From: Elsinoe ampelina
Lineage: Eukaryota
DNA length: 64,000 bases
Assembly (NCBI GenBank): GCA_010093995.1
Contig: ML992511.1
Span: 701,516 to 765,515 of the forward strand
Direction of reading: 5' to 3'
The notes beneath the pieces were generated by a model. The model was not told where the DNA came from and did not search any database. It worked only from the letters and a program-made list of their open reading frames with translations. This document shows, in pieces, positions 6,897-31,571 of the stretch. The position numbers and the translations under genes were made by a program. Each line of letters opens with the position of its first letter. The stretch's first letter is position 1.

Positions 6897-6978
6897 CGTT
6901 ACGAAAGTCCTAAGTGTAAGGAGTTAGAATATTAAGTTTCTCCGTATTAAACTAAGTTTAACTACGTTAGGTCGCTAC

Positions 6979-7080
6979 AAACGCACTACACCTATCTAAA
7001 TTTAGTTAAACGTACTATACCTACCTAATTTTAGTTAAACGCACTATACGTGCCTTAGATTAGATAAACGCTCTACTTGC
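6979..7080 (+). repeat. Subterminal 29-bp tandem repeat, ~3.5 copies
   Basis: AAACG(C/T)(A/T)CTA units start at 6979, 7008, 7037 and 7066 (exact 29-bp period). Confidence 0.85.
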
Positions 7081-8999
7081 CGCGACTAGAATAGATATAG
7101 AAATCAACAAGCATCTTCTAGAGAGAGCCCTCTAAGCTAGTGTTATTATAGATCTTATCTACTAGATAGAGGGGGAGTATATACTCTACATTATCGGAGC
7201 TTAGTATAGAAGCGCTTTTGCTATAATAGGAAAGTAGACATTATACGCCTTGTTCTCTAGCTTATAACATAAAACCCTAAACTAATATATACTTATTCTA
7301 ACTCTATTTTATCGTCTCTACTTAGTTGTCTATTAAGGTGTTAGATATCTCTAAAGACAAGCACTTTCGCGTAACTATATAGCTAGCGACAAAGGTTAAC
7401 ACTAACGAAAAGCGCCTCTATTGCCCTATAGCCTACAAGTTCTACTATCTAGCGGCCTATATTATTGACAATATAAAACAAGCTTATAGAGGGGCATTTA
7501 TAACTTAGGCTTATAGATACGAGAAAGCTTTTCCTAAGAAGAACTTAATTATTATAGCTAAGTACAGTTACAACATTAAGTATAAATACCTATAGACCTA
7601 TTCTAGTACTTAGAAGTTGTTAGTAACGTAGGAAGAGAATAACGATAAGAGCTAGATATACTATATTAATAGTGGCTATAGTAGCGAGGCTATAGCCTAT
7701 TCTAAGAAGATTAACACTAACACGGATAGGTGTAGGAAATATAATAGACATTTAGTTTAGGCTAAGCTAATCCCTCGTCTACTAACACGGAATAGTATAC
7801 CTACTAGAAGGATAATTCTAAGGCTACGAAAGACTACCTAGAAAAGTAAGGTCCGATAGATATTAGTATAGTATCTAAGTAGCCCCGGAGATAGTACTAA
7901 GGATATAGTAGTCTAAACAACAGCTCGAAGGTAGTTATAGTAGAGAAGTAAATACTCTTTCTAGAAAGTTTAAGATCTACCTCGACTATCTATCTATAAG
8001 GTTATTAGCAAGGAGATAATTAGTAATAATAAGAGGCTTCTTTCGCTTCTTACCCTTCTCCTCTACCTTGCCGAGCTTAATACTAGTATAGCTATAGACA
8101 CTAGCGAAGATAGGGGTAGTACGCTTCTTACCTTACCGGCTCTTAGCGCTAGTTATAGCAGTCGTCGGAGAGGTAATAGAGGCAGTATTCGGGTTAAGAT
8201 CGTAGCACTTTATTGCTATATATTAAAGATAAGGTTACTCCAACGCGTACTAAGCTTCTAGTAATAACCCGTAGTTATAGCTATATACGAGTAATAGTAG
8301 TTATAGAGGGAGTAGTAGTAGTAGCTTCGGTTACGGTGTACCTTACTATAGTAGAGAGCAAGGAGAAAGGTATAGAGAAGAAAGAGAGTATCTCTCTCTC
8401 GGAGGTAGATACAATAATACTTTTTCCTACTATATCCCGCTACTCTACTATTACTACTACTAAGTAGTAGTTGTAGTAATAGCGCATGTAGGATAATCTA
8501 GTATATAATCTTATAGACAGGATTTGTCGTATATATATTATATACTAATAATCTTACGAGGAAATACTTATAACCTACGTAGATATAGAGGAGACTTTAG
8601 AGAATAAGGAAGAGGCTACTCGCCGTACTAAAGGGTAGCTTCTTCCTTAACTCGTTTCCCGCGTATAGTATATATATAGAGATTAATAAGAATATTCTCT
8701 AGTAGGTCTTCTAAGCCGGTGTTATTATAGATCTTATCTATTAGATAGAAAGAAATAAGTCCTTAGTAACTACTCTAGTAGCATCGAGTAGATCCCTGCA
8801 ATATAATAGCAAATAGAGTAAAGTACTATCGTCTATATCGGAGTCTTATTAGTAAACTTATTATAGAGAATAAACTTTCCTCTTAGACTACTAACTCCGT
8901 TAGTGAAACTAACCTAAAGATAACTTACTAACCTAAGCCTTTTACTACTATTGCTAAATACTTAAAGTATATCTTAAGCATCTTAAAGACTAACTTCTA

Positions 9000-11900
9000 T
9001 AACGCCTCGCTATAATTTCCTAAGCTATTATAATTAGTAAAGGAATAGACTAACTCTTTAGCGTAAAAACTATATAAGGTACCTTAAGCTACAAACCCTA
9101 TATAGTTTAGGGACTAACCTAATAATATATAGGTATAAACTAACTAGTTAGAGTAATACCTACGGAAGTTATTATAACTCGCCTACCTAACATAGTCTAG
9201 TAGTAAACCTAAGTATACCTAAGTGTTAGGCCGTTAATATAAGAGATAATTGTTCTAGCTACGAAAGGAGTACTCTAGCTTCGTTAATGCCTACTACGCT
9301 TACTAACTATGCCTAGAGATCTTAACCTCTCTCGTTTTAAAGCCTTAGCTAAGTAGAGCTATTTAGACTTCTATAACTTATTCTATAGCATATTATATAT
9401 GTTAAAGTCGGCTATGTTATTAATGTATATCCGGCTATATAGCTTCGTTTTATCTACTAGTATAACGTAGATACTATAGTAGATTTATAAGGTAGAGTAG
9501 ACACGCCTACTAGTAAGGGCGTTCTATCTAGCTCGCGCGCGTCGATTTGTCTAAGGCTTAATTAGTGTTATACTATACTCTTAATTAGCTACTCTATCCG
9601 GCTAAGTAGGCTAATATAGATCTACTAGCGCTCCTATGTAGTATAGGCGTTAACGCTAGCCCGATCTACTAGACTAGAAGCTATCCTCTATAGTTATTAT
9701 AAATATAATACGAGCTAGTAACTTACCTTATAGGCTATTAGGTAATACTCCGTTAGTACCTTCGTTGTTTATTGTCTATTCTTACACCTAGAGCTAGTCT
9801 TGCCTCTTATTGCTACGTATCCTTTGCTATTTAGTTATACACTAGATAAAGTCTTATTCGTCTATATTAGAATTATTATAATTATAGTCGGATAGTTTTC
9901 TACACTTTAAAGAATAGTAGAACTTAACGCGGAGGTCGCTTACCTAGGAAGAATCTAGTTTAAGTCTGTTAGGATCTAGTTTAGCGTTAAACTAATTAGG
10001 GTATTTAGTTCTCGAGTTAGAGCCTATATCGGCTATACCTTAACGAGCCTCGCGGATAAACACCGCTATTACTTACTATAGCAATAGCCTAGGTAGCATG
10101 TTAATAAGCGCCTCTAGTTCTCTTACTATACGCTATATAGCTCCCCTCTTAGCGCTAGGCTAGCTAAACTAAGAAGTAACATTTACTATATCGCTTACAC
10201 TAACTAGCGTACTCTAGATCTTAATTAGTTTAGTAGCCGATAGCCTAACTAACTTCGAGGGGTTGTCGAATACTACTAATATATTTACTAGTTTAGTGTT
10301 ATAAGTAGTAACTTAGTCTTCCTATCTAGCCTTCTTATTCGTAAGTTTAAAGGCGTCCTTAATAAAGCATATATAATTATGCTCTAAATAATTAGAATTA
10401 AGGCTAGTAACTACTTTAAAATTATAAATAGCCTTTGAAAAATGTGTTATTAAGTACTATTTCGGAAAGTTAAAGTTACTTTCTTCTTTTCTGTCGCTAT
10501 AATAGGCCTAGAAGGTTTCTTTATACTTGTTTATCCTAAAGAGCGCAAGGTTAATATACTAGAGTATGTCGTTGTTGTAGGTCTTATAGTTTACTAGTAA
10601 TATAAAGTCGACTAGTGCGCGTATAAACTTAATAGCTTAAGGCGCCTTAACCTCCTTAAGTAGTAGTATAAATACTAGAAGTATCTAGTACACGATACTC
10701 TTCTACTCTTAACCTGTCTATTGCTTAACAGCTAAGTAGTACGAGAAGTGTCGAATGCTAAGAAACACTAGTATACTATTAAAACGCTTATTAATAATAT
10801 TAAGTATAATCTTCTTTGCTAAGCGCTAGTAGCCTATTCGCTATATAGTCTCTCTAGCCTTTATATACTATAGTAATCTCTATATAGGTATTAAATCCTA
10901 GAGCAATTTTCGAGTCTAGTATAAGACATATATTAAAACGCCTTTAAGAAGTTAGTATAGAATATCTAGTACTATTGCGTAGTAAATATTAGTATACGGA
11001 AGATCCTACGTAAAGTAACTAACTATATAAACCTAAGAGCTTATATCTATCTTCTCGCCCTGCTACTAACTCTTACGTGCTTCTCTCTATAAGCGCTATT
11101 ATTACTACGTAGAGTAGTAAGTTCGGAACAGCGTAGTAACTACTAGGTTCTTCCTTTTGTCCTTACTAATTAGGTAACTTATATAATAATATAGTAACTT
11201 TACACTAGTTATAGTAACCTATTCGGTGTAATTCGTAGGCATAGTAGTAAGTATAGAGAAGTACCTCTACCTCTTTCTATCCGTATAGGAGATTATTTTA
11301 CTCCCTCTTAAGTAGCAATTAATAACAGCGTTAAAGATTTTCTTTATGTAAGTATAGTAGGTCTTCTCCTTAACAATATTACTACTATCTTTAATAATAG
11401 AAAGTAAGCCGATTAGTAACTACCCTAGCTAGTAGTTGCTATTACGTGCTTCTACCTTTAGGTTGCCTAATAATAGATAGATAGCATATGCTATAAGATC
11501 TTCTTAATGGTTTATTACCTAGGTCTAATTACTCGCGACGATTAATAGAATAATAGTAGCCCCTAGTATTCTAAGTCGCTTTTGTGTGTCCTACTACTAG
11601 TTGCCGCTTACTATTTTAGTATATACTTGTTGTAGCGGCTTACTCTCGATAGCTTCTATAAAGACTCTATATAGGCTATAGTCTATGTCTACTGCGAAAC
11701 TGTAATAGCTAAGTAAGAAGCGTATCGCTATAAGAATATCTAGATACTAGAACGTGTATCTTTTAGGCCTACGATTAGTGTTTAGTATAAAGCTCGAGGT
11801 CTGCTAGCTATTAATACCCCCGCCTATATCTAAATTCTCTATCTTCTCTATTAGTTCATTCGTAGTTCGCTAACTAAGGCTCTCTACTAGAGGTTATATG

Positions 11901-12850
11901 CGTAGGTCTTTAAGCAATTACGTAATTATAGCTCTACTAAGTTTCTCCTTTATAAGCTACTAGGTAAGACCTACGTCTATGCTACTATTAAAAGCTTCCT
12001 TTAGTTAAGTCTCGCCTAACTAATTATAATTTAGTTTATCGTCGGTGTTAGTATATATATTATAGACTTAGGGAGATCTAGACAAGATTAGTCGACGCAA
12101 ACTAAGGATAAACTATATCTATAACTAACTCTTCGCTACTAGCCGGTATACTAGTAGCTATCTCGAACGTAGTACAATCGGATATAGCTTTACTAGATAA
12201 GGACAACCTCCTAGTACTCTACTCTATAGACGTGCTACTAGTTATACTTGCCGTAATTACTTACTCTTCCTCGTATATGCCTCCTATTATAACCTTATCT
12301 ATGCCCTCCTCTTCCTCGTACACGTCGCTATTAAGCCTACTATTACTATTACTGTCTATTCTACATACTAGAGGTCGAGGGTTAAGGTTAGTAAAGAGAC
12401 TAAGAGGATTGTCCGCTATACTATACTATATAGTAGGCAAAGAGAGAAGAATATTCTCTACTAGCTATAGACTTTTATTTCTACCTTAGTGTTTAGTTTA
12501 ATTCTTAGTTACTGTTATTCGTAGCGGAGTAAAGTAGACTAGTAGGTTATTTAGCATCGGCGGACTATGTTGTATATTACTAGTAATACTACCTCGTCGG
12601 CCTTTATTAGATAGTAAGCGCTCTCTCTTATTAAACAAGTAAGGATTATTACTAGCGTTATCTCTACGTAGATGTCTATCGCTACGTTACTTTAGTAAGA
12701 CTTATACTATATTACTTATTAGTAGCTCTCTCCTCTAGTAATATAGTAGATATTAGACAAGGCCTCTACTAGATTATATAATCTTCCCGTAGGCTAAGTA
12801 TTTACTAATTTGCCTTAGTATGTCCGTGTTTGTCGCTTAAGATCTAAATT
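9000..12850 (-). pseudogene. Plavaka-type (CACTA/CMC-related) transposase, RIP-inactivated
   Basis: De-RIPed minus-strand motifs: N-terminal CxxC...H finger (~12750-12810), SGNWWWDTQ (~11582-11608), GATIxPLIVASDQTQ (~11515-11563), AYAIYLSLGNL (~11460-11490), PDILHQLLKGVF (~10935-10972), RF..P.FPGIRHF...KQWTGQEQK (~10700-10795), FNFPKxHL (~10445-10478). Ends approximate. Confidence 0.85.
12055..12570. repeat. ~510-bp repeat copy 1 (Plavaka N-terminal region)
   Basis: Highly similar to 19407-19918, differing mostly by C/T and G/A transitions; also visible as near-identical ORFs 12232 and 19584 in the track. Confidence 0.9.
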
Positions 12851-12899
12851 TATAGTTAGAGTTAGCTAGCTAAATTTTAGTAATAGTAGAAAGTAAGAA

Positions 12900-15800
12900 A
12901 CGTTTAGATGCTATATTATGTTAGGTAATCTAAAAGATAGTTTAACATACACGGGGAACTAAATTAGTCCGCTAAACTAAAGAATTACATTTTTAGGTGA
13001 TATAGTTAGACTATTATCTAGTAATCTTAATTATTATCTATAATAATTATATTCTTCTTTGCTATAGCTTGTTAAAGTTTCTAGATCTCTGCCCTTTACT
13101 TCTCTATTTCCTCGTAGATAACCTTCTATATTATTAATAGCTTACTCTATCTACTATTAAGCTATTCTAGAGGCCTATAGAACAGAGCTATCGGCTTTAT
13201 TATAAACGCCTCTATGTAGTTAGCTTTCTAAGACTTAATATTCCTACGGACCTAAGCTAGATACTAAAGGACGAATCGTAATACTAACGCTATGTTAAGC
13301 AAGATTATAGTATCGAAGCGGTTTAGATTAAGACTAGTCTTAATAGCTCTACCCTAGGCAATTAAGATCCTTAAGCCTTCCGGCCTATTAGGTTTAATAA
13401 ACGTATTATTAGATATAGCTACGTCGACGATGTTTATATAGGTAGGTATAGATATTATTCTATAGTAGACAACAACTACATTAGTATCCTTATCGATTCT
13501 AATTGCTTTGCCGTCTAGGTACTTCTCGAGCTATTTTAGATACTATACCCTTATTAGTAATAACCTAAATAGACTAAATAGACCGAACTAACTATTGTAG
13601 TAACTACTAGCACTAATAGTATAAATGTATAGATAATTACTTGCCTCTTTAGCTCCTTCGAATAGGAGACGTTCTGCTTAATAATCTTAGAAATAACACT
13701 ATAAAGGACCTTTATCTAAGGACTAGCATAGATCTTGTCTATGTACTACTATAGCACTATCTCCGAGAAGTTATATATAATTTTATAAGTAAACTTAATA
13801 GTAAAGTTGCTAAACTCTTCTACGACTGTAGGATTGTCCTAGAATATATCTATAAGAGCGAGAAACATAGAGAAAAGCAGTAGCGGCGTAACTAGGCTTA
13901 GTATTTACTTCTTAGTCTTCTTGTTAAGGATTGTCTCTAATGTTACTTTAGGCTTGTCGGATTTATCCTTTTGCCTGTCGATTGTCTCTTATATACTCTT
14001 ATCTATATCCTATTCGATCTTCTTCTATATATTTATAAGACTATAAAGATACTTATCCTCGATAGTGATCTCTAGGTCGAAGGTAGAATACGGTAGGACT
14101 CTAATAGCTAGCAGACTAGGAGCAGTATCGAAAGGTTTCTAGATATAGTCTATGTTTATCTTAATAAGAATATTTATAAGGATAGTGCTCTATTTGCTAA
14201 CTGTTACTATAATCTCTTCTATAAACTATATACTTCTCTTTTTGTTAAACTTGCTAGGGTTGTTATTTGCCTTATACTATTTGTCAATTACGAAGGTATA
14301 GTCTAATACTATTTAGAAGTTAAGCTTATTAGTAATAGCTCGTTAAGTCTTGTCTAGTGTTATCTTCGGTGTTACTTGACATTTGTTGTCCTTAGCCTTA
14401 GTTAGCTCCTACTTAGATTTATAGATATAGTTCTTGTTAAATTCTCCTATTCTACTTCTATTTATATTAAGCTTTTCTAATCTAAAGTTCTTATATATAG
14501 CCGCTATTAAGAACGCTACTACGTTTAAGCACTTAATAAATAGTATTCCGCTTATGCCTAGTATAAAAGGCCTCCCTAGTAGTATTCCTAGATAACACTA
14601 GGTCTACGTCTTCTAGCTAGTAACCTAATAGAACTTATTAAAGATAATAGCGGCCTAGTTTATAGGTGTAGATCTTAGCTTTCTCTCTTGTCCCTTAGGA
14701 ATAAAGTTCTAATCCTTAGCATTTATATCGTTCTTACTAAGGAAGTAGTAGATTATAGTGTTACGAGTAGTAAAGAAGAACTAATTATTTATCTATAAGG
14801 TCCGGGGGTGTCGCTTACGTATATCGACTAGTTATAAGACTATAATAGTATCAATAGGCTCGCTAGACTTATCTATTAGCTAAGACTTCTATTAGCGGTA
14901 GCCTATAGACAGATCCTCTTTGCAAATTAAAGTGTCTATGTTATATACGTCGCTATACTTATGTTCTTACATAGCTTAGAATATTCTCTTCTAGTATAGG
15001 ACGATCTTTATATTAGGTATAAACTTCTATATCTCTCGCGCCTACTGTTTTATTATATTTAATCCGCTAACAATTAGATTATAGCTAATAGTATCTATAG
15101 AAGCAACATCTAGCTATAGCTCATTAACTAGTATCTTTGCCTTCCAGTACTTACTCTACTTATCCTTAGGTATAGTAGTATAGTTAGTATCCTAGATAAC
15201 CTTTTTATTTAAGTTCTAAATTAGTAAGAGGAAGAAGAGTCCTATTAGAGTCTTTCTAAATTCTATCTTATATATAAATATAAATACTAGGTAGCCTTCG
15301 AGGTATTTCTTAAGTGTAACAAGCGCTAAGTATATTTATACTACCTCGACTAGATACTTCTTATTCTAACTAAAACACTATATACTAGCGTTCGGTAAGT
15401 AGATGTCTTTCTTAAAGCCTATAAAGTTATAGACTCTCTCCTAGAACTCTTCGGACTAGTAATTAATTCTAGTGCCTATAGGGATAAAGCTTTAGTTAGC
15501 TAGATTATTACTAGTTTACTCGTTGTTATTGTTGTTTATAGTATAAAGTTTAACGAAGTTCGAGCTACTAAGAGTCTTATTAAATGTGTAAGTTATAAGC
15601 GCTAGAATAGGTATAGATAGCGTCTTAGGGACTAACGGAATATAGTACCTTACTTGCTCCTCGCTAGGCATAATTATAAAGGGATACTAATTGCTGTCTT
15701 AGTATTACTTATAGTATTTGTCTTTTATTACCCAAGTAGGACAATAGTTAATAGTAGTATTATTCTTGTTAGGTAGTAGAAGGCTAGGTTACTTCTTAGG

Positions 15801-17090
15801 GGTAGGTTTACGTAGTAGTAGGCGCTTAGCTAGAGATAGAGGGGCTAGAGGTTCCTCTTCCTCTTCCTCCTAGACTAGAGTCAATAGCTTCTAACTACTA
15901 CAATACTAAAGAGAGTTAACTAAGTATATTAGTATACACCTAAGTCGAACTAAGTATTAAACTTATAAAGTACTTCTTTAGGGAGCTTCTTAACTAGATC
16001 TATACTAGGCATAAGATAGACAAAGATTATATTACTACCTTTAACTAGGGAGTTAATATAGTTAATTATAGCGGCACGTAGGTCGTAGTTATTTAAGATA
16101 GGTAGAATGTTATATAGCTCTATATAATCTATCTATACAAGAATAATGTTATTACTAACTAACTTCTTCTCCTTTAGGAATAGCCTAATATTATTAAGGC
16201 TATATACGTTTAGATTATAATTCCCTAGATATAACCTTAAAATTCTTAGACTAAACACCTATAGACGACATAAATATCCTCTCTTTATAATTATGCCCGG
16301 GCTAATATCTAATTACTTAACAATTATAAAGTCGATAATAGTTTTATTAATAATGCTCTAGACTAGACGAGATATATCCTCTAGTATTTACTACTAACGT
16401 ATAGGCTAACTAGTGTAGTAATTAATATCTATACCTACGAGTCTGCTACTAAGTATAGAAGTCTTTAATCTTTTAGAGAGTCTACTATTAGACTAGGTAG
16501 TAGAGGGGCGCTTTCTAATATACTTCTTAGAATAAGCCTTCTTGTCTACTTTAGTCTAATTCTTCTTATTTCTAAGCTCTTACGCCTTAATAGTAAGGAC
16601 GAAATCTTTAATAACATTATAACTAGATATATTATTATAGTTTCTAACGTTCCTCTTAAACTAGTCTTAGTCTTAATAGTATAGTCTTTAAAAGAAGATC
16701 TTCGTATAGTTATCCTAAGAGTATTATAGAGAAGTTTTAATGTTGTCTATAATTGTAGTTATATTAACATTACTATTCTAAGGTTTCTTATATTTAAGTT
16801 CTAGAACTATATAGATATTCTTATATTTTTCCTACGCTCTTACATATACGGCAGCGTACTAGTTGTTATCCTAGTTAAAGAATTCGAGGAAGAATCTCTT
16901 AATCTTAAGGTTTTTATTAAGCTATACTTAAATTTCTATAGGAGGTCTTTTGTAGAGCGGAATGTTATTAGTAGCTATACTAGCGCCGTTAGGCTAATTC
17001 TTAGATATATTACATGCGTCTATAAGCTTAGTATATGCTACAAATAAAGCTTAGAATAATATCTAGTAAATAGGTTAAGTAGGTATAGTA
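12900..17090 (-). pseudogene. SNF2/SWI2-family (SF2) helicase/ATPase, RIP-inactivated (paralog A)
   Basis: De-RIPed motifs in order: I (H-E-M-G-F-G-K-T, ~15250-15272), Ia (LIV...KQWAREIxKFxP, ~15015-15085), II (WAAIIFDEFH, ~14628-14657), III (LGMSGTP, ~14540-14562), IV region (SP..KVL...RQVIIxxF, ~13620-13730), V (TGLNL, ~13322-13345), VI (QYLARVRR, ~13230-13265). Confidence 0.8.
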
Positions 17091-17907
17091 GATGTTAAAG
17101 AAGAGATCCTATAAAAGTGTTATATATTTATAAGTTTAGAAGAATTAAGAAAAGGATTTATTAACGTAGTAGGTCTATACACTTTGTGATATATACCTAA
17201 CTAAGACTTAACTAAAGAGGAGATATTTAAGTAAAGAGCGCTTAAAAGAGAGGTTAAAGAGGTTAAAGAAATACTAGAGAGCTATATAAGTTATTTATTT
17301 ATATATAAGAGAGTATAAACAAAGGTAAACTAAAGCAATTAAGGAAAGGAGTAACCTAAATTTAGTTAACTTAGGTTAGGCCCTAAACTAAGCACGTAGT
17401 AGTATACTAGATATAGCGTATATATAATAGTAGATTACTTAGTTTAGATACTAAACTAAGAGTGACTATAGTCCGTGTACTTAGTTACCTTTTATTGTAC
17501 ATGCTATATGTACTAAGGATACTATTGTTATATTTAGGGTAGATCTTAAGGGATAATAGTCTAATAAATAGAGGAAATATAGTAGTAGTTAACGTAAAAT
17601 AATTAAACAATATTTTAATAGCGAAACTAGTATTTATATACGAAAGACAATAGTAATAGAACACAAATAGAAGGTGGTTAGTAGCCTATAGCGGAATAAA
17701 GGGCATAGTATATATAGCATATAGTATAGCTTATAGATACTAGTAAAGGAATAAAGAAAGTAATATACTACTATCTAATTATTTAGACTTTACAATTGCT
17801 ATATATAGAATTAAGTAGTAGAGTAGAGTAAAGGCTATACATTCCGCAGAATAGGTAGTTAATAGTACATTCTACATAATTATAAATACGCTTTATTCCT
17901 CGCCTAG

Positions 17908-18708
17908 CTCTACTAGAAAGGTAATAGCGAGAGAGGACGCTACTAGTATAGCTCCGCCTATAATGCCCTCTATAGTAAGCTACTGTCTAGTAGGAGGTAG
18001 TAGACGTATCTTTGCCCGCGATATTCCTCTATCTCTTCCTCTTTGTTATACCGGTTGTTCCTCTATAATTCTCCCCTTAATATCCTTATACTATAAGGTA
18101 GATAATCCCCGGTAGACGCTAGCTTCTCTACTCTCTTTATATACGCTAGAACCCCTAGTAGTGCTATCCGTAAGATCGGGAGATGCTCCGTAATAGATTC
18201 GCTTAGTCGTAGCTACTAGGTAGAGACAGTAGCTAGTCCTACTAATAATATATAGCTAGTGTAAAGAAAGCTATAGAGAGTAGCGGTAGTAGAGAGAGAG
18301 AAAGAAGTATTAGAGTCTCCTTACACACTCTTAAGCCTATAGTAGCGTAGTAGGTAAGATAGAGAGGTATACTATAATAGATTTGCTCCGGCGTAACTAC
18401 TAGGTACTAGTAGTAGTTAATCCTATAAACACGATATAGCTAGTATAGAGAATACTATTAGAAGTAGTAGCAATAGCGATATAGGAGTAAATGTTAGAGT
18501 CGCTATTATATATATAGTAATAGATAATTGTAGTGTACTAGGCGGGAGATCCGCTATAATAGATAGCTAGCTATTATTAAGGTTAGATAGAGAGGAGAGA
18601 AAAGGTTATACTAGGGACGCTAACGCCTACATTTAGGTCGGTGTAAGTAGAGAGCGTAAACTAAGGCGTTATAGTGAATTATATCTACAATGTAGTTATG
18701 TCGCTATA
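17908..18708. repeat. ~800-bp direct repeat copy 1
   Basis: Highly similar to 25080-25881 (e.g. GCCCTCTATAGTAAGCTACT, CCGTAATAGATTCGCTTAGT, ATACTAGGGACGC). Confidence 0.9.
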
Positions 18709-18833
18709 AACAGGGTTTACGACGCGTTTATAATGCTATAAAGATTATAAGTCTCTAAATATACAATACTTAACTTTAGAGAAGAACATAATTAGATAGT
18801 ATTATATAATTAAGTTCCGAGGAGTACTTAATC

Positions 18834-19033
18834 TAGTTAGGTCAAAATTTTAAGTTATTCTTAAACTTCGAGAGAGAGGACTAAGAAATTGTTAGTTCGA
18901 CGTAATAAACTACTAGCTATCCCCTGCCGGCCGTAGTTAGGTCGAAATTTTAGGTTATCTTTAAACTTTAAGAGAGAGAACTAAGAAATTATTAGTTCGA
19001 CGTAATAAACTACTAGCTATCCTCTACTAGCTG
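18834..19033 (+). repeat. 100-bp tandem duplication (2 copies)
   Basis: TAGTTAGGTC...GTTCGACGTAATAAACTACTAGCTATCC starts at 18834 and 18934. Confidence 0.9.
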
Positions 19034-19406
19034 CCCTCTACTACTGCTATATATAACATGCTAGAGATAGAGTAAAGCAACAATTTGTACTACTAAATTT
19101 AAGCCGAGTAAGCTTTCTACTAGCAAACACTGTTTTACTATTAGTTAAACTACTATAGCCTTTGCATATGTAACTTAGATATATCTTTAGTACTCTTACG
19201 CAGGTAGAAGTAGATTTATTAGAACATTATATAGGGGCTAGTAGTCCGTAGTAAGTGTATTCTACTAGAAGGCGCTTCTACTATAACGACCTAACTCGAA
19301 TTAAAATTATCTATCTAAGTTAGTAGCTTGCCTTTTATTAAACGTTAGAGCGCTAAGCCGAGAGTCCCTAGCTAAGCTATATCTTATTAATCGCTCGGGG
19401 CAAAGG

Positions 19407-19918
19407 ATGTATTATAGACTTAGAGAGATCTAGACAAGATTAGTTAACGTAAACTAAGAATAAACTATGTCTATTACTAACTCCTCGCTACTAGCTAGTA
19501 TACTAGTTGCTATCTCGAATATAGTATAATCGGATATAGCTCTACTAGATAAGAATAACCTCCTAGTACTCCGCTCTATAAACGTGCTACTAGTTATACT
19601 TGCTGTAATTACTTACTCTTTCTCGTACGTGTCTTCTATTATAACCTCGTCTATGCCCTTCTCTTCCTTATATACGTCACTATCGAGCCTACTATTACTA
19701 TTACTATCCGTTCTACGTGCTAGAGGTCGAGAGTTAAGGTTAGTAAAGAGACTAAGAGAATTATCTACTATACTATACTATATAGTAGGTAAAGGGGGAA
19801 GGATACCTAACGCTAGCTATAGACTATTATTTCTACCTCGTTACTTAGTTTAGTTCTTATTTACTATAATTCGTAGTAGAGCTAATAGGACTAAGCTATT
19901 ATATAGCATTAGCGGACT
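19407..19918. repeat. ~510-bp repeat copy 2 (truncated Plavaka N-terminal fragment)
   Basis: Direct repeat of 12055-12570. Confidence 0.9.
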
Positions 19919-20279
19919 AAAGCTAAAATTGTATCTACGCTATAGTACTAGATACGTTAAGACAGAGTTTGCTCTAATATATCTAGGCAATAGAGTTTGT
20001 CGGCTATCTCTTACTTAAGGACAATGTTAAATACTATACTTAATTAGCTATTGTTACGCTATTGTCCTTAGTAGAGGCTTTTATAGCAATTGTAAAATAG
20101 GGAGTGCTACGTAGGCATAATAATTTTAGCTAGTAAATGATTTATAGCTCTTGCTATCTTATGTCTTAACTTGTCGCTAGTATTGTAATAAGTTAGTTAT
20201 AAATAGCCTCTACGAAAAAATAGTAATAGTAGTATATAAAGACGCCTCGGCTATATAATATTAGGTCGTTTATGCCTAT

Positions 20280-23200
20280 AGTTAATCTATTAGGGGTGGT
20301 TAATTAGTTCGCTAAACTAAAACTAGTGCTTTTTAGGTAAAAATTGTAGGTGTTCCCTTAACTAATCTTAATAAGGATAAACTAATAATTTGCCATTACT
20401 CCTCTATTAGTTTAAACAACTACGCTTTTAGTTCGTCTACTTCGCTATATTGTCTTATATAACCTTCTATATTATTGTTAGTATATCGTAGCTATAGTTA
20501 ACCTACTTCTTTAGCCGATAGGATAGTATAGTTAGCTTAAGTATAAACGCTATTATTACGTCTATACTAGCGAATGTTATATTCTCTAAGGCACTATCGG
20601 AAGTCTACTATAATAATTAGATCTATACACTAACTTTGTATTAAGCAAAGTTACACTATTAAGGTAGAAGTACTAGTACTCTACTTATTATAGAACTATA
20701 TGCTATTCCTAGTTACGAACTAACTAGCGTAGCCTTCTCGAAGTAAGTTTACTTTAATATAGCTACCCCGATAATGCCTACGTAGCTTACTATAGACTTC
20801 TCTCTATAATTAATAACAACGACTTTAGTGCCCTTACTAATCCCGATAGCTTAGCTATTCGGGATTCTCTTAAGTTATTATAGATGTAGCTCTCTTATTA
20901 GTAATAACCGAACTAGACTAACTAAGTCGAACTAACTACTATAGCTACCGCTAGCGCTATAGAGTTACACGTATAAATAATCTTTTACTGCCTCTTAGTC
21001 TTCTAACTGTAGGCTTTCCGTTCTATAATCTTAGGGATAATAACATAAAGGCCTTATATTTCTAATCTAGCGTAGCGCTAGCTATATACTTATCTACTAC
21101 TTTAGCTCGAGGTATAAAGTCTAAGGAGTGTCTATAGCCCCTGCCGTAATGTCGGTTAATGTTATTACTCTTTCTATACTAGCGAGGCAGTAGAGTAAAT
21201 AAAGTAAGCTTGTAATAATATCTAGTATAATTACCTCTAGGTTCCTTTTGCTTATTAAATATAGATATTATCTCGTGCTACTCTCTCCTATATAGCGTCT
21301 CTATAATTATAGTTAAGGTATACTCCTCTATGCGTAATGCGATTTACATATATAGTACTACTAAAGAAATAAGATATCTGTCCTCGATTGAAACTTTAGA
21401 GTCCTAGTTAGGAATATCTTAAACCTAATAAGACATAAAAGCAAGCGTAGCTACTAGATGTTTTATAATTAGGTTAAGATACATATCGAGAGGAATAAAT
21501 AGAAGTCTAGCTATCTATATAGGGACTAATACGAAGATTTTGAACTAGAAACGAGAAGTGACTATTATATTTACGAAAAGGGAGCTATAATAGGCTTTAA
21601 CTATTCTTACGTTACCTTCGTATAGGCGGAGAGCTACCTCTCGTTATATTATATAGTAATATCGAGTTAAATCGTGTCTAGTTTATCCTCTCTTGTTCTT
21701 TACGATAGGTACGTCTTTGCCGCCTATAGATAAAGACTAGCTCTACTATATCGAAGCTGCCTTTGTTAAGTAGTAAGTATCTAATCCCTTTCTCTTAGTG
21801 TAATTAACCTTATATCGAATATTAAGCTTAATACTAAACCTATATATGTAGTTAGTAGAGCTATACTAATACTAAGTAGTAATTGCCTAACAAGGAGAGG
21901 CATAAGATAGCTAGGCGTTATAGCGTTCCTTTAAAGGACTTATCCGCCCTAACATAAAATAAGTTTGTCTTTAGTTTTAGGCTAACTAAACTAACTTAAG
22001 TTTGTACTTAGTTAGGAGGCGTAACTAGACCTAAAGCGTCTCTACTATTTATCGGGAGGTAGTAGCTAGAACTAATAATAGTCGGCGGAAATTCTTTATT
22101 AACTTCCAAGTATGCTATATATAAACCTTGCTAGTATATAAGAGTAAAGCCTAATAACTATGTTAGTAGTAACACCTACGTACTTCTTTATAGCACTATA
22201 CTATTCTTATTTAATTTAGTTAACTCTAAGTTCGGTATAGAACTAAAACTTGTACTATTACTTCTACTATAATAGGGGATAAGATTCTATTCTACTAACT
22301 TGTTTTACTTATTATTAAACGCCCTAGTCTATTGTATCTATAGTAGCATTACTTTGTTTCTATTGTTGATAATATTAAGAACATATTACTTTTTTAATGC
22401 CGATGTTAATCTCGTGTTAGTAGAAGTAAGTTATTATCTTCTCGGACTTGCTCTCTTTACTCTAATACGTTATAGCGTGCTAGGCGAGCTATAGGAAGTT
22501 ACTAGTAATAAAGTAGAACTTAGGAGAAGTATTAGAGAGCTTCGAGAGATTATATTTATCTAGATAGATAGCCGGCCTTAGGTGTATAGTAGCTTACATA
22601 ATATTCTTTAAGCTATTAAAGCAGTAGGAACATAGATAGCACCTCGGCGGTATATACTATAGTCTAAATAGGCTATGTTCTTCTAGCGGGAGAGAAGGAG
22701 CTATATTCTTCTAAAACTGTATAAAGTAAAACTACACCCTAAACTAAGTCGCTAGGTCGGTTAGAATCTGTCTAGCTATAGTTATAGGACTATCGAGCAA
22801 GTTTGCTTTTAATAATAATAATAGAAATCGCAGGATTTATAGGGGCTATAGCCTCTTAGGGGTAGAACGAGCTAAATAAAACTTTATTAGTTAAGAACTA
22901 AATAGTTTTATAAATAACGTAATAGCAAATAAAACATAGTAGTATTACCGCTCTTGCCTTTAGTAGTTTAGTCGCCATTGCGGGTATTAAACGTTCTATA
23001 TTATAATATCCTCTTTCTACTAATCTCCTTTGTGCTTCTTATTAGTATTAATGTCTATAAAGCAAAGCTTCTTAGGAGTAAGAAACACTTCTAAGTTCTC
23101 TTCTATAGTAGCCTCGGCTATAGGAAGTAGTTGCTAGCTACTATAATATTAATAAGAGTTGTCTATAAGTATTAGTATATATAGATAAATAGAGAAGGAG

Positions 23201-24330
23201 TAAACTTACTTTATATAAAGTCGAGAAGATCTTTAATAGATACTATAGAAGAAGCAAGATAAAGAAAGATCTTATAGGCACTAGAGATAAGAGTTATAAC
23301 ATGCTTAGTAATAGTAGCGTCTAGATCGAAAGAGTCTTTAATAGCGAAGACTTATATAGAGTTATATATGTTAAGCTAGTAGAGTTAGAGGTAATTACCT
23401 CTAATGTTAAGGATCTACCTAAGCTTACTAATATAGTAATTAACGTAACAATTCTTATCCTTACTAGCACTAGGCTTTCTTAAGTTATAGACGTAGATGT
23501 TCTTTCTTAATATTAGATACGGGATAGTATCTACTTTAATAATCTCTATAATCTAGATCGTAGCAAATTTAATATTAATCTAGACACGATTAGACACTAG
23601 CCCCTAGTTAAAGCTAAACATTCTATAATAAGGCTATATATACAAATCTAATCTTTTATCGCCTGTCTTTACACGAGTTATATATCTCTCTAAGGATAGT
23701 ATTCTTACTTAGGAGAGTATTAGTGTCTATACGGACAAGGTAGCTAAAGGATATAGACTCTAGGTGCCTTCTTCGCCTAGTAACGTTATTCTTTCTCTTT
23801 TGACTAACAGGAGATTTGCCCTTATTAATTATATAGTATTTCGGAATAATCGCTATATAGCTTTTATCTTATTAATATTAACTATAGTCTATAAGTTCTC
23901 CTTAAACTAGTCTAGATCTTTCTAATCTAGTCGGTTAATAAAGAGCTAGAAATTATTAGGCGTGCTATTTAGTAGCCTAGTTTCAATTTTAAGGCGTGCT
24001 TTAAGCACCTTAGAATTGCGTAACTCGCTTCTATCTTATTTCTCGATTTTGATATTAGATTCTATAAAGACTTTTAAGATTATTTCCTTTATTCTTGCGA
24101 ACGTAGTAGAGTATTACTAGTCGTTCTAATTAAAGAAGAATTAGATAGATTTCTTACTAACATTATTATTGTAAAGTGCATTCTTAATAAGAGCTAGTAT
24201 AAGGTTATTAAGTAGAATCTTTTCTATAGGTTTAGTAGTGACCTTTAGCTTCTTTGTCTTTAGCAGCATAGTGCTATTATATATATTTAATAAGTATAAG
24301 AATGTCTACTAGTAAAGGCGTTATATAAGG
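20280..24330 (-). pseudogene. Diverged SNF2-like paralog B, RIP-inactivated
   Basis: Colinear similarity to 12900-17090 at several anchors (e.g. 20301-20338 vs 12961-12998; KRQxxIIxT...VSSxxLVxxGYY at ~20895-20996 vs ~13550-13650; FFxQ..Q.Y at ~24110-24140 vs ~16850-16885). Catalytic motifs not recognisable. Confidence 0.6.
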
Positions 24331-25079
24331 CAAGTAAGGTTAGAGGAGTTAAGATTATATAGCTAGGAACTAAGCGTAGTAAGTTAAGCACTATAGAGCA
24401 AATAGTAGTAATTATAAATATCTACTACCTAGTATAATATTAAAATGCTATACGGAAAGTAGGTAGCAACTTCTTAAATATAATAAAATTTATATTTAAG
24501 ATAGTATACTAAAGTAAGTAGTATACTTATAACTAAGATCTAGTTTAGGTCTCGACCTAAAAGTAAACTAGGTTAACTAAGTCTATGTTTCGCATATACT
24601 AATAGTAACACGTAACAATTACTAATATTAGGTCGATACTAGAACTAAAAGTAAATAAGTTAGTTTACTACTAACAAATATTATAGAGTGTAAATTAAGT
24701 AAGTAAACAAAACGTAGCTATCGAAGGATGTTATAAGTACTAATTATTACAGAAAATCAGTGTCGAAGTAATTAACTATACTAAACGCTTATATATTAGT
24801 ACTATATGCGAAGTTATATATACTTTAAATAGCTAGTAGACTATTTAACAAAGAGCATTATTGTATAAAGTAACAACCTTAATGTCTTTATAGTAGACAG
24901 AAGATAAGACAAATAACAAGGAATAAAGAAAGATATATAGTATACTTATACGTATTAGACAAGGAAATTTTGTTTACTAGTTAAAGGAGGGGAATTAAAG
25001 CGATAGGTATATAATCTACATAGAAAGAAGTATATTACTAATGCAAGGAAGTTACAATAAAGCGCTACTAATAACAAAA

Positions 25080-25881
25080 CCCTACTATAAAAGTAATTAT
25101 AAAAGAGAATATTACTAATATAGCTTCGCCTACGACGCCCTCTATAGTAAGCTACTATCTAGTAGGAGATAGTAGATGTATCTTTGCCCGCAATATACCT
25201 CTGTCTTTTCCTCTTTATTATACTAGTTGTTCCTCTATAATTCTCCCCTTAATATTCTTATACTATAAGGCAGGTAATCCCTAGTAGACACTAGCTTCTC
25301 TACTCTCTTTATGTACGCTAGAACCCCTAGTAGCGCTATCTATAAGATCGGGAGATACTCCGTAATAGATTCGCTTAGTTATAGCTACTAGGTAGAGACA
25401 GTAGCTAATCCTACTAATAATACATAGCTAGTATAAAGGAAGCTATAGAGGGCAGTAGTAGCGGGGAGAGAGAAAGAGGTATCGGAGTCTCCTTACGCAC
25501 TCTTAAGCCTATAGCGGCGTAGTAGGCAAGATAGAGAGGTATACTATAATAGATTTACTCCGGCGTAACTACTAGGTACTAGCGGTAGTTAATCCTATAA
25601 ATATAACGTAGCTAGTGTAGAGAATACTATTAGAAGTAGCAGCGATAGCGAGGCGGGAGTAAATATTAGAGTTACTATAGTATATATAACAATTAATAAT
25701 TGTAGTATACTAGGCGCGGAAATCCGCTATAATAGATAGCTAGCTATTATTAAGGTCGGATAGAGAGAAGAGAAAAGGTTATACTAGGGACGCCGACGCC
25801 TACGTTTAGGTCGGTATAAGCGAAGGGCATAAACTAAGGTATTATTACGAATCGTATTTGTAATATAGTTATATCGCTATA
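25080..25881. repeat. ~800-bp direct repeat copy 2
   Basis: Direct repeat of 17908-18708. Confidence 0.9.
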
Positions 25882-26139
25882 TAATAAGTATATAATAAAA
25901 CTAAGAAAAGATAAAGTTTAGCGCATTAAACTTTATAGTTCTATAAGTGTTAGTTTAGGCTAACTAATTATAACTAAGCACAATTCTAGTATACCTCTCT
26001 CGTAAGTAAACTAAGATCTAAGGCTTATCTATCGTAAGTAACACTCGCACCGAATTACTACCTATACTACTACTCTTCTACTCCTACCTCTCTCCTCCCC
26101 TCCGTAGCTATACCTATATCTACTTCTTATTAACTAGCG

Positions 26140-29100
26140 ATGTGCTTAATTAAAGCTATTAAGCAAGCTCTCGCTCTTAACAATAAAGGCTATAGAGACT
26201 TATATAGTCTCTTAGAGGATATTATAATAGGTAAAGGCATAGTTAGAAGAACATTTAGATTAATTTCTAATAGGAGAAGATTAGAGAAGGAGGTACTTCT
26301 AGTAGCACTAGATAGTAATAACATTCGGTACACGTTTCGGCGTATAATAGAGCTCTTAGAGAGCGGCGATAGTTAAGCTACCTTTCGTGCTCTTATCTAT
26401 AAGATAAGTACCAATTTTAGACGTTAGTGGGTATAGTTACACTTAAGATTATATAAGCCTAAAGGAGCGTAGAATAGTACTAATACGCTTACCTCGAATA
26501 AATCCTCGAATTGCTAATTGCAATTATAAGCGCCTTTACTCTCTAATTAACTAGACGATATACTATTAGTAGTTCGTAAGGATAGAGAGATACGTCCTAT
26601 CTACTCGATTAGAGATCTCCTACTTATACGTTATAAAGCTATAACTACTATGTCTAAGGAGAATATAGATATTAAGTTCGATTAGCTAAGGGTAATATCG
26701 ATTATAACGGACTACTATATATATAATAAGCAAAGCAATGTCATAGGTTAGAAGAATAATAGAACGCCGTATTTCGCTATAATAGAGAATACTATCTAGT
26801 TTAAGGCTATTATCTTATCTAAGATATTACATAGTTTACCTCTTTATATCCTAATAAGGTAACAAGATTAAGGAAAGCATCTAGCCGAAGCAAGCATAAA
26901 GGAGAATAGTCTAGTAGTAGACTAAGTCGAACTAAAAAGTAGTAGAGTAATCTACGCTAAGCTATATCTACTACTAAACCTTAGAGTTTTAGTTCGTTTA
27001 CTACGCTTTATCCTTCCTTGCCTTTTAACTAAATCGCCCTTTAGAATTACTTATCTATTCTTCTACTATTAATCTATCGGGTCTATTAGTATCTTTCGGC
27101 TAGGCTCCTAAGTATAAATATTAATTACACTAACCTTGTTTCTCTAGCGGCTAATATCTAGACTATAGAATTAAGTATATAGGCTTCTCTTATCTATTTA
27201 GGTGTTAAAGTATAGTCTTCTAACAGTCTCTTTAACTAGCTAGAGGCTTAAATTAGAAGCTCTCTACTATATATATACGGAGAAGAGTATAATTACGTTA
27301 GTAGCTAGCAAAAGCGACATAGGACCTAGTAGCCTAAATAGCTTAATAGATAGTAACTCCTAGAGAAAGACATTACACTTGTTTAGTAGGAAGTAGGCTA
27401 ATTACAATTAATAGCAAAGAAGAACGTAAGCTTAATTAGACAACTCTAGTAAGAGAATAATATACTTAGGGAGCACATTAGTAAAGCTTTTTACGCGTTT
27501 AGTATCGCCTCTACGGACCTTACTAGTAGAGTATTAAGGGGCTTATTCGGATTAAACAAGGGTATACGACGCTATACTAATAGTGCTACTCTACTATTAC
27601 TATGTATAGTTACTAATAGCTAATTAACGCCTGCCCCCTATTACGATATAATTAGTAGAAGATAAGCTACTCTATCTAGCATGTCTTATTTAGACACCCT
27701 AGATAGTAAGATAGTAAGCAATTAATGCTTTTAGCACTTAGAAGATATACTACTTAGCAAAGGGAGAACTACTAACGTAATTAATAAGGGAGCTACTATA
27801 TGAATTATACTACCTATCTATATATATAATAGCTAGTTCCTATAGTCTTTCGAATTAGTATATAATTGCTCGGTCTAAGTTTAATCTATAATTTCTCTCT
27901 ATATATTTCTACTCTAATTGTTACTTAACCTAATAACAAATACTATATTTAGTTTAAGTATTTAGTCTAAGTAAGTTTAAGCAGCTTTCTTTTTTAGTTT
28001 AGCTTCTAGTAATTAGCACTCCGCGAGTTAGACCTAGCTACAGGTCTAATTTAATACTCTTACTAGTTAAGATTACCTTAGGGTATAGGTAGATATAACT
28101 AATTCTAATTAGAAGAAAGTTACGCACTCTAAATACCTAACTAAGCTATTATCTAACTTAAACTAACGCTAAATTACTGTAACGCACATAAGATAACTAT
28201 CTATCTCCCTTATAGTATATATTATTCCGGCCTGCCTTACTAACTCTCTTATACCTATATATCTCTTTATTAGAACTATTATAAACTAAGATATCTTAGG
28301 CACGTTAGCGCCTACATAGCTTAGACTATAAGACCGATAAGTATTCCAAAGATAATAATTTAAGTTATTTTAACTAGGATAAAGCAGAGTAAGGCTTTAG
28401 CATTAAGAGAGACTAAGCTAACTACGTAGGCTATAAACACAACATCAAAGACGAAGGAGAAGGCATAAATTAGACATTACTACTCTCGATCTAAGTTTAA
28501 GAGAGTTATAACCTAACAAGAATAGTCTAACGTTAGCCTCTACGCTAGTTAAGATAGTAAAGCGGAGGTAATAGAACATACTAAACTAGTATCTCGACAT
28601 TTTCGAGGTAGTACGTAATAATCTATATATAAGTATAGCTATCGGAGTAGATTATAATACAATATTACTAACATTAGACAATTAATAGCTACTTCTATAG
28701 ATTATATAGTACTAGCGCTTAGTTCGTAACTAGCTACTAGTACTTTATCTATAGAGGACTATAGGCAAATACCCTTCCGTAGTTATAGCTAGTAAGGTAG
28801 GTTACGTAGCTAAAGCTAATTACTTATTAATATATATATAGCTCCGAGAGGCGCTCTACTATAGTTATAATAACATTATACAAATAGTAAGCGAGATACT
28901 CTACTACGAATAGCTAGCTAAGAGGCTAGAGAATAGCGAGCTACCGAATTAGGTACGTAGGCTACTAGAGGAAAGAAAGTACTAATACAAGGACGGCAAT
29001 TTAGTATGCGCTAGATATACTTATTAATTAATTGCTTATATATAGTAGCGTAAATGCTTTAGGAGTCCTTTAATATATAAAGCCTTCTAAGTAGCCTTTA

Positions 29101-30400
29101 TTAGACATATAGGCTTAGCTATAATAGCTAGTACTTACTATTACTTTAACGAACTAATACTCTTTCTTATTTCCTCTCTCCTAGCGACGATTTATATACT
29201 CTTAGTTAAGTAAGCAAACAGGGTCAAGTCCTACTTACCTAAGGGAACGCTAGTATTTAAACGTATAGAACCTTTAGAACTTAATTATGTCCGACTAAGT
29301 ATTTAGAATAACTTCCTAGCGTAGATTAGCCCGAGATAGGTTCTTATCCTTCGTTAGCTAAAACTTAGCTTTGCTAAGTACGTTAAGAGAAATAGACTTA
29401 CTATTGTAGTAGTAGTATTAAATATATCTCTTTACACTAACACTATAGAGGGACTATTAGATAGAGAGGATATAAGGGAAAGGTACATATATACCTTCTC
29501 GTTTTAGTTCGGCCTACCTAACTTTAAACTAACTTATAGAGAAGTTAGGTATATAATAACAAGCCTAATAGCAGAGATAATAGCTATTATATAGTACTAG
29601 TACAAAATGCTCCTACTAAGCACCTTTTAAGAGGTAAGCTTAATTCTTCTATTAGCTTCTTAAGTTTAATACTAATAGATTAAGAAGAGTGTCTAATTAA
29701 GGCTAAATACTCTATTATAGCATATTAAGGTACTACTTAGTTCGCATATAGGAGCGAAGTACTAAATTGCCCTATAGTAACTCCTACGATAGAAGCACGG
29801 CTGGCGTAGATACCTAATATAGACAGTAACCTTGTTATGACTTTAACTACTACTAAACTAAGTTAGGTTATAGTTAGTATACACGAGAATCGATAGACTT
29901 AATAGCGACATTTACCCGGGCTACTTAATTATATACGTGCTATACTATTCTAAGACGGACAACTTAATAGCGATTTACTAGCGGTCGAGGCGTAGTAGAA
30001 GGATTTCTTAGGTATACGGACGTAGATAAACTTTTTATCCTTTATACGTAAGAAGTTTAGAGGCCTACTACGTAAACTAGTCTTATAGTACCGAATCGGC
30101 CTAAAGTATAGTAGCGGTATCTTAGACATTAAGGAGGACAGACATTCGCTAGATAGAGATACTTTTATAGAACTAAGGGATAAAGATATAGAATTATAAG
30201 AAGATAGTATATATATCGTTATTAAGAGTAGTGTCAGGTAGAACGTAAAGTAATATATATATTCTAGCGACCTTATATAATTTTCTAGACGTAGTAGACG
30301 AATTACAAGGTCTATATAATATATAGACATATATAATGTATACTACAAGGTAAGCTACGTAATAGAATATTTCTATAATTAATATTATTAAGCTTATAGA
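26140..30400 (+). pseudogene. Several RIP-destroyed plus-strand ORF relics of unknown function
   Basis: Long protein-like frames broken mainly by TAG/TAA at positions consistent with CAG/CAA/TGG (e.g. ~26140-26430, ~27440-27800, ~28750-29450, ~29950-30300). Confidence 0.5.
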
Positions 30401-30433
30401 GTAGATATAAACTAATTACTTCGCGAACTAAGA

Positions 30434-30983
30434 NNNNNNNNNNNNNNNNNNNNNNNNNNNNNNNNNNNNNNNNNNNNNNNNNNNNNNNNNNNNNNNNNNN
30501 NNNNNNNNNNNNNNNNNNNNNNNNNNNNNNNNNNNNNNNNNNNNNNNNNNNNNNNNNNNNNNNNNNNNNNNNNNNNNNNNNNNNNNNNNNNNNNNNNNNN
30601 NNNNNNNNNNNNNNNNNNNNNNNNNNNNNNNNNNNNNNNNNNNNNNNNNNNNNNNNNNNNNNNNNNNNNNNNNNNNNNNNNNNNNNNNNNNNNNNNNNNN
30701 NNNNNNNNNNNNNNNNNNNNNNNNNNNNNNNNNNNNNNNNNNNNNNNNNNNNNNNNNNNNNNNNNNNNNNNNNNNNNNNNNNNNNNNNNNNNNNNNNNNN
30801 NNNNNNNNNNNNNNNNNNNNNNNNNNNNNNNNNNNNNNNNNNNNNNNNNNNNNNNNNNNNNNNNNNNNNNNNNNNNNNNNNNNNNNNNNNNNNNNNNNNN
30901 NNNNNNNNNNNNNNNNNNNNNNNNNNNNNNNNNNNNNNNNNNNNNNNNNNNNNNNNNNNNNNNNNNNNNNNNNNNNNNNNNNN
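30434..30983. other. Assembly gap (550 N)
   Basis: Run of N. Confidence 1.
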
Positions 30984-31119
30984 ACCTAAATTCTATAGTT
31001 ATAGTTAAGGTAGTTCTTAATAGATTCTAATACTTAAAAAGCAAGATAGTAGAGAATTAACTAATAAATAGAGTAGGAAAGTAACTAAGTAATGTACTTA
31101 TATAGGGGTAGTTATACTA

Positions 31120-31277
31120 GGCTTATAACTATTAACTTATATAGGGGAGGAAAAAGGATTAATTACTACCTATACTACTAAAATAAGGTAGATTATAACT
31201 ATATAAATACTTAACCTAGTGTACTAAAAGATAGCTAAATTAAAAGAACTCCTTAATAGCAATAGATTAAGACAATA
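31120..31277 (-). mobile_element. PBS (31120-31129) and probable 5' LTR (31130-31277) of a copia element, likely the outer element
   Basis: GGCTTATAAC (minus GTTATAAGCC, same PBS type as 5238-5251) followed by TATTAAC...GACAATA (RIPed TGTTG...CAACA); CpG-free like the outer copia. Confidence 0.65.
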
Positions 31278-31571
31278 ATTATCTAATTTGATTATAGATT
31301 AGTAAAATGGTGAGATAGTGTTTAGTTTAACCTTGGGATGAACTGAATCAGGGTCTTCTTGGCGCTCCAGCTTATACCTCGGTTGACAAGTGTCAGTCTG
31401 ACTTTGGGCCTCTTCGTTCGTTTTATCCCTCTCTAGACATCTTTCCCCGTACGCTGATCAAATAACGTCGTTGCTTAATGTCCATCTGCACGTTACAGGT
31501 CGGATCAAGATGGAACGGCTCTCCTAAATCGATAAGCATATTATCAATAAGCTATCTGAACCCGCATTGAG

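Follow-up and report, generated by a model that had tools for sequence, protein, structure and literature searches.

The window analyzed here, a 64,000-nucleotide stretch of Elsinoe ampelina contig ML992511.1, contains an AT-rich block with the remains of a Plavaka transposase gene, raising the question of whether the block is a single large DNA transposon and, if so, what it carried besides the transposase. The original prediction, made from the sequence alone, was of a large multigene DNA transposon combining a Plavaka transposase with an SNF2 ATPase and a second SNF2-like gene. From the analyses below, the block is read as one copy, clipped by an assembly gap, of a multicopy and probably giant element of the Plavaka lineage that was killed by repeat-induced point mutation (RIP); we give this reading an even chance of being correct. 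The block, the gap and the transposase are positioned as follows.

6897-30433: CpG-retaining, RIP-mutated, multicopy block; its left end is a true junction, its right end is cut by the assembly gap
30434-30983: run of 550 N (assembly gap) concealing the right end of the block
~10934-11863 (-): Plavaka DDE transposase domain (Pfam PF18759)
9000-12567 (-): transposase gene at its probable full length, judged from purine-any base-pyrimidine (RNY) periodicity and composition

When the entire block was scanned in six frames, Plavaka was the sole Pfam family identified. The domain was matched in one frame over profile positions 4 to 317 of 325 (E = 1.1e-22; 81.2 bits, with a cut-off of 26.3), and the Plavaka transposase of the original prediction was therefore confirmed by the hidden Markov model (HMM) check proposed for it. 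By this profile match the transposase is assigned to the Plavaka lineage (EnSpm/CACTA-related, CMCT clade), and it is the only recognizable gene of the block. Stop codons make up a fraction of 0.071 of the domain frame, and with approximately 7% stops the gene is dead. The same frame contains YISY (amino acid 572) and YIVSY (amino acid 624), 52 residues apart, which in this single copy are compatible with an origin from CxxC and HxxxH motifs through RIP, because RIP turns TGY and CAY into TAY; both motifs are described for the Plavaka clade in PMC12730594. RNY periodicity in the transposase region was 0.08 to 0.14 with a consistent frame pair, and the charged-residue composition favored the minus frame. 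Upstream, the transposase frame would probably continue into an acidic, Ser-rich N-terminal part, lying within the repeated segment A1 described below. A word-indexed protein search using the RIPed Plavaka translation found nothing; the method is thus unsuited to RIPed queries. Scans of stop density and open runs did not separate the frames, and the true Plavaka frame was not the lowest in stops.

The AT-rich part of the window that includes the block carries the signature of RIP, and the block is set apart within it by its CpG content. The parts of the window concerned are listed here.

~1-31400: AT-rich part of the window (GC content 0.25 to 0.36)
5456-6896: left-flank repeat, termed Z, cut at 6896, with 0 CpG in 1,441 bp
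25917-30433: right arm of the block (CpG observed/expected ratio 1.11), of a composition like the rest, without a recognizable domain or repeat partner
From ~31.4 kb onward: GC-rich genic part (GC content 0.50 to 0.64, normal RIP indices)

Per-kilobase indices across positions 1 to 31000 ranged from 1.59 to 2.14 for TpA/ApT and from 0.11 to 0.37 for (CA+TG)/(AC+GT). The block alone gave 1.66 to 2.14 and 0.19 to 0.37, respectively; the corresponding values at 32 to 34 kb were 0.56 to 0.60 and 1.09 to 1.43. With a GC content of 0.327, the block has 28.9 CpG per kb, while the flanks have 2.9 (1-5454), 0.0 (5455-6896) and 0 (30984-31362). The CpG observed/expected ratio was 0.93 to 1.21 (22 to 40 CpG per kb) in nine of nine block sub-segments versus 0 to 0.17 in three flank segments, in agreement with the CpG-retaining composition originally claimed to distinguish the block from its surroundings. 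It is likely that the CpG-free flanks are older or were RIPed more often, and the block looks younger.

The left boundary of the block, between 6896 and 6897, is real. Position 6897 is the first CpG after 1,441 bp without any, and the following 1.4 kb contain 34.7 CpG per kb. Among contigs of two public runs (X1 and X2; see below), six from X1 and seven from X2 represent other copies of the flank repeat, matching up to 6896 and then continuing into a shared, different sequence; the flank repeat is thus interrupted exactly at 6896/6897. The block had been said to begin exactly where a copia gag is cut. The start at 6897 is indeed sharp, but no gag or pol domain of a copia element was found in the abutting flank (0 Pfam families in six frames of 5400-6901). 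On the right, CpGs persist as far as 30424, and the 379 RIPed bases past the gap (30984-31362) have none, from which it follows that the true right end lies inside the gap. Position 30433, previously taken as the end of the element, is simply the edge of the 550-N gap. No Pfam family was detected in a six-frame scan of the right arm (25917-30433). The longest stop-free ATG frame of the block, of 126 residues and with no Pfam match, lies in this arm just before the gap (29950-30330, minus strand).

Contigs of X1 and X2, both from a single sample that probably also gave rise to the assembly, were aligned at ≥80% similarity to positions 6500 to 26499. A total of 13,585 (X1) and 10,130 (X2) contig pieces were placed on this 20-kb stretch. 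The variable places in X1 comprised 372 A>G, 355 C>T, 416 G>A and 339 T>C differences with 28 transversions (approximately 98% transitions). At the best-supported listed sites in X1, 16 to 19 distinct variant contigs were counted in the left arm, 15 to 18 in the transposase, 17 to 20 in unit 1 and 13 to 15 in unit 2 (the two units are described below); these figures come from 40 of approximately 1,600 variable places, and other listed places had fewer contigs. Summed depth was nearly flat in 29 bins spanning 7167-26499 (8,147 to 13,914 for X1 and 10,130 to 16,064 for X2), amounting to roughly 50 to 80 copy-equivalents. We take this to mean no more than that the diverged copies number at least one to two dozen and that every part as far as 26499 is present in similar multiplicity. 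The many transition-diverged contigs bear out the multicopy origin under heavy RIP that had been proposed.

Between the transposase and the right arm, self-comparison revealed two collinear direct units of approximately 6.7 kb (~12012-18743 and 19364-25916), repeated with a period of ~7.2 to 7.35 kb. Their components are as follows.

12012-12567 (+): segment A1, direct repeat of A2 (19364-19919)
12568-17899 (-, strand inferred from composition): unit 1 interior, with gene-like periodicity and no detectable homologue
17900-18743 (+): segment B1, direct repeat of B2 (25072-25916)
18834-19022 (+): 100-bp tandem repeat, 1.9 copies (Tandem Repeats Finder [TRF] score 322), in the 620-bp spacer between the units
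19364-25916 (+): unit 2 (A2, interior 2 and B2), collinear with unit 1, interior strongly diverged

A1 and A2 share 84.1% nucleotide identity (516 positions) and 97.1% purine/pyrimidine identity (513 positions), and B1 and B2 share 86.5% (800 positions) and 99.0% (804 positions), respectively. B also holds an internal tandem of ~184 bp. The interiors align in patches only (12880-13731, 15792-16219 and 16784-16999 by tblastx), with a global alignment score of 2,170 compared to 1,112 to 1,258 for controls. RNY periodicity was 0.17 to 0.21 at 13500-17400 and 0.15 at 22800-24300, with 0.16 to 0.22 in real genes of the window, and a crude composition test favored the minus strand for the unit interiors, as for the transposase. 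The units would accordingly appear to encode proteins; the transversion phase between them gave no clear codon periodicity, with a weak hint in B (5/0/10). No Pfam family was found in the unit 1 interior or in unit 2. When RIP was reversed using the two copies, A yielded a single plus-strand frame that is almost open (4 stops per 200 codons) but of low complexity and antisense-looking, opposite an acidic minus-strand frame, and B yielded no open frame.

Several simpler accounts of this arrangement were discarded. The interleaved order A1-B1-A2-B2 rules out A or B being long terminal repeats (LTRs) and, with it, two nested LTR elements. A simple recent tandem duplication is also ruled out, as purine/pyrimidine identity is at background level in the interiors and 97 to 99% in A and B. 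Joints between A1 and A2 and between B1 and B2 in the contig data are cross-matches of the duplicated segments and do not point to structural variants. A different possibility is that the block is a segmental or tandem duplication, such as a pericentromeric or chromosome-end repeat, that contained an old Plavaka insertion and was later RIPed, with no amplification by transposition. The internal direct duplication with its regular period, the flat depth over 19 kb and the lack of demonstrable termini or a target site duplication (TSD) would all fit. However, the flank repeat is truncated at a sharp junction (6896/6897) that resembles an insertion or breakpoint, the 13 to 20 distinct variant contigs per listed site are many for segmental copies, and ordinary housekeeping genes follow from ~31.4 kb. 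We regard this possibility as unlikely and return to the reading of the block as a multicopy Plavaka-lineage element.

The duplicated segments also allowed the context of the mutations to be examined. Over wider spans, the comparison of A1 with A2 and B1 with B2 gave 207 transitions and 80 transversions. Neighbor contexts were counted in 12055-12567/19407-19919 and 17906-18708/25078-25881. When sorted by 3' neighbor, the C-to-T differences between copies comprised 83 at CpG, 34 at CpA, 26 at CpC and 26 at CpT, and the cytosines retained in both copies comprised 253 in CpT, 71 in CpC, 57 in CpG and 18 in CpA. As C-to-T differences were commonest at CpG, this dinucleotide was mutated in the block too, and RIP in E. 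ampelina seems, as judged from these counts, to act on CpG in addition to CpA.

The most specific claim of the original prediction was that the element carries one or two SNF2-type chromatin-remodeler ATPases. In its favor, the transposase is accompanied by two large paralogous units that have gene-like periodicity and, from their composition, seem to be on the minus strand as well, and heavy RIP could in principle mask a domain. All six frames of 6897-30433 were searched as 24 translations with stops read as X (E ≤ 0.01 in 9 and ≤ 0.1 in 15), and none of the 24 matched SNF2_N (PF00176), Helicase_C (PF00271), DEAD, ResIII or any other helicase family. Two domains with equal or worse RIP damage, the RVT_2 domain of a copia-type element in the left flank (89.3 bits) and the Plavaka domain itself (81.2 bits), served as controls for sensitivity and were readily detected. 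Reversal of TpA to CpA or TpG in all frames recovered no Walker A motif (GxGK[TS]), no motif V and no motif VI, and only one DExH-like motif II. When all T and A were reverted, the counts of motifs I, II, V and VI were 52, 11, 14 and 5, against 51 to 70, 2 to 6, 7 to 11 and 1 to 3 in four controls (three shuffles and one reversal). Motif I was thus within the control range, motifs II and VI were above it and motif V was slightly above it, counts that are close to those of the shuffles overall. In the list from this full reversal, no ordered I-II-V-VI cluster was seen by eye, no co-occurrence test having been coded. A phmmer search with the frame of unit 1 judged most likely to be coding (12300-15899, minus strand; 1,200 residues) gave no hits at E ≤ 0.001 among 1.84 billion representative proteins. 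In the PDB, the same query had no match at E values up to 10, and 15602-17398 (minus strand) returned only four chance matches of 10 to 13 bits, to ribosomal protein uS15m and UPF3B.

An SNF2 cargo is thus not supported by these profile and motif searches, and we consider it very improbable that the element carried one. The HMM check that had been suggested failed to recover the ATPase beside the transposase, and the second SNF2-like gene fared no better, with no helicase family in any frame. The two genes of the original prediction are probably the two paralogous large units described above. With AcademH, KolobokH and Helitron, the block shares nothing beyond the general concept of a helicase-carrying DNA transposon; it differs from them in that no helicase of any superfamily was detectable in it. 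Starships are defined by a DUF3435 tyrosine recombinase, the captain, and Helitrons by Rep with a Pif1 helicase. The six-frame Pfam scans of the block turned up neither the captain nor the Rep and Pif1 families.

Near its left end, the block contains two sets of short repeats.

6979-7075 (+): 29-bp tandem repeat, 3.3 copies (TRF score 117)
7077-7170 and 8656-8749 (+): 94-nt direct repeat, 79% identical

The 29-bp array begins 83 bp inside the left junction, and a CACTA-like core is present in every unit. Elsewhere in the window, neither strand contains another copy of the unit, and no 29-mer is common, at ≤3 mismatches, to the first 900 bases of the block and its last 830. The units are therefore confined to 6979-7075 and form a local subterminal array. 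The 29-bp repeats reported originally do exist near the left end; neither an inverted copy nor a partner at the right end was found. In En/Spm, the short repeats just inside the element ends are transposase-binding sites, and by analogy the 29-bp repeats may be candidate binding sites for the Plavaka transposase. The likeness to plant En/Spm (CACTA) elements extends to the related DDE transposase clade and to the CACTA-like core of the 29-bp unit. In contrast to En/Spm, the repeats of the block are in tandem at one end only, no CACTA pair of terminal inverted repeats (TIRs) was identified, and Transposase_21 and Transposase_24 were not found. An inverted match between A and B, scoring 116.5 against controls of 57 and 74, was distrusted as it is a long, gapped alignment of ~50% identity.

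Whether the whole block, and not just the transposase arm, belongs to one element is the point on which its size depends. Given the flat summed depth and the homogeneous composition of the block, the large multipart element of the original prediction is plausible, but the SNF2 cargo assigned to it was absent from all scans. Under the reading favored here, a large cut-and-paste element of the Plavaka type, at least 23.5 kb long, would have inserted into an older, CpG-free region rich in retroelements. It would include the transposase arm (6897-12011) and ~13.9 kb of two diverged collinear units that were amplified together, so that the whole block would have moved as a single element. Amplification would then have produced at least one to two dozen copies (the roughly 50 to 80 copy-equivalents by summed depth), after which RIP would have mutated every one of them. 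The more exacting version, in which the ≥23.5 kb represent one giant Plavaka family with a late, rapid burst marked by CpG retention and with two paralogous genes of no known family, is put forward only tentatively.

The competing account of the block is a mosaic, in which a short Plavaka element or fragment (~6897-12011), two members of an unrelated repeat family of ~6.7 kb, and debris were all RIPed together. Elements nested in one another, forming a mosaic, are the usual makeup of AT-rich RIP regions, and the left flank here is such a case: it holds a complete copia-type element inserted in repeat Z.

93-5455 (-): complete RIPed copia-type LTR element, with LTRs, an RVT_2 domain and the TSD ATTAT

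The mosaic is also suggested by the conserved ends A and B (97 to 99% purine/pyrimidine identity) with far more diverged interiors, as is typical of subfamilies that share their ends, by the absence of any Plavaka signal inside the units in the Pfam scans, and by the failure to find a TIR for the block. However, depth is flat and counts of variant contigs are similar over the transposase arm and both units, with the flank five times higher; the bin at 6500-7166 has a summed depth of 53,970 and 51,463 in the two runs, approximately 5-fold the ~8,000 to 16,000 of the block. CpG retention is likewise uniform in nine of nine sub-segments, with three neighboring repeat segments differing sharply, and A and B are not mutually inverted and the outer boundaries of the units are fuzzy. 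A mosaic is in our view possible but doubtful.

Several observations nevertheless weigh against a single giant Plavaka element. The near identity of A and B between units with strongly diverged interiors would equally fit distinct elements whose ends are conserved. Copy number cannot be equated with summed contig depth, which covers the block up to 26499 only. No TIR partner of the left end stood out within the window (score of 43.5 versus 36.5 for the reverse control, with forward hits of up to 54), and the right end and any TSD are concealed by the gap at 30434-30983. Finally, the left end of the block reads CGTTACG, the right end falling within the run of N. The published Plavaka termini are TGT..ACA and CATCA..TGATG (PMC12730594) and CATAC (PMC12581995), with TSDs of 2 to 3 bp. 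CGTTACG is none of these, and RIP cannot create the C and G residues in it.

Known Plavaka elements provide two points of comparison. PlavakaA and PlavakaB have been characterized in Agaricomycotina, with some families carrying a TET/JBP gene (PMC12730594), and Plavaka has been reported in the ascomycete Tuber (truffle) (PMC12581995). The block resembles these fungal elements in that its transposase fits the Plavaka profile over nearly its full length and in being a multicopy, DNA-transposon-like repeat in a fungus. It differs from them in its left end (CGTTACG), in having no TET/JBP gene or recognizable cargo, in being heavily RIPed, and in being much longer than a transposase-only element. 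In the red alga Bostrychia moritziana, giant Plavaka families of 17.4 to 19.1 kb carry three accessory genes and tandem repeats and make up a third of the genome (bioRxiv 10.1101/2025.02.11.637652). These share with the block a very large size, extra genes, tandem arrays, a high copy number and mostly degenerate copies. The algal accessory genes combine an adenine methylase with SET and ParB with a 2OG oxygenase, none of which were found in the block; the two also differ in kingdom and in that the block decayed by RIP. No Plavaka element with SNF2 was seen in the searchable full texts, a set that excludes supplements and most subscription literature; the word SNF2 occurs once in bioRxiv 10.1101/2025.02.11.637652.

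If the block is one element, cut-and-paste Plavaka transposons can become giant and highly multicopy in an ascomycete with active RIP, which would provide a fungal counterpart to the giant Plavaka of red algae and make the family a major contributor to the AT-rich compartments of this genome. Should the single giant family hold true, it would be the first giant multigene Plavaka described in a RIP-active fungus. The claim that SNF2 remodelers were carried to counter silencing falls, and what remains matters mainly for transposon annotation. Domain calls made by reversing RIP by eye need an HMM check.

The copia-type element in the left flank is a separate element nested inside repeat Z, the repeat that is interrupted by the block. 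Its LTRs (92-295 and 5251-5454) are 204 bp each and share 100% purine/pyrimidine identity, and the 5-bp ATTAT flanks it on both sides (93-5455). The RVT_2 domain is at ~1122-1784 on the minus strand (E = 3.9e-25; 89.3 bits), in DNA with a GC content of 0.27. The two CpG-free flanks, 5456-6896 and 30984-31362, may be parts of one interrupted repeat; no sequence that continues the cut flank repeat was detected in the rest of the window. By summed depth in the source sample, the left-flank repeat family is much more abundant than the family of the block.

The GC-rich genic part encodes a glycogen phosphorylase, a WD40 protein, a DOCK protein, an Rpb3/AC40-like RNA polymerase subunit and a heme peroxidase. 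A diverged tandem duplication of ~85 to 110 bp (43217-43485; 70.7% over 184 bp) sits there within an open frame (42531-43568) that is without a Pfam family. The heme peroxidase is encoded by an open frame of 1,206 residues on the minus strand (58840-62457), neighbored by the Rpb3/AC40-like gene and by the DOCK gene of 2,219 residues. It contains an animal heme peroxidase domain (E = 6.3e-38), of the kind known from fungal fatty-acid oxygenases.

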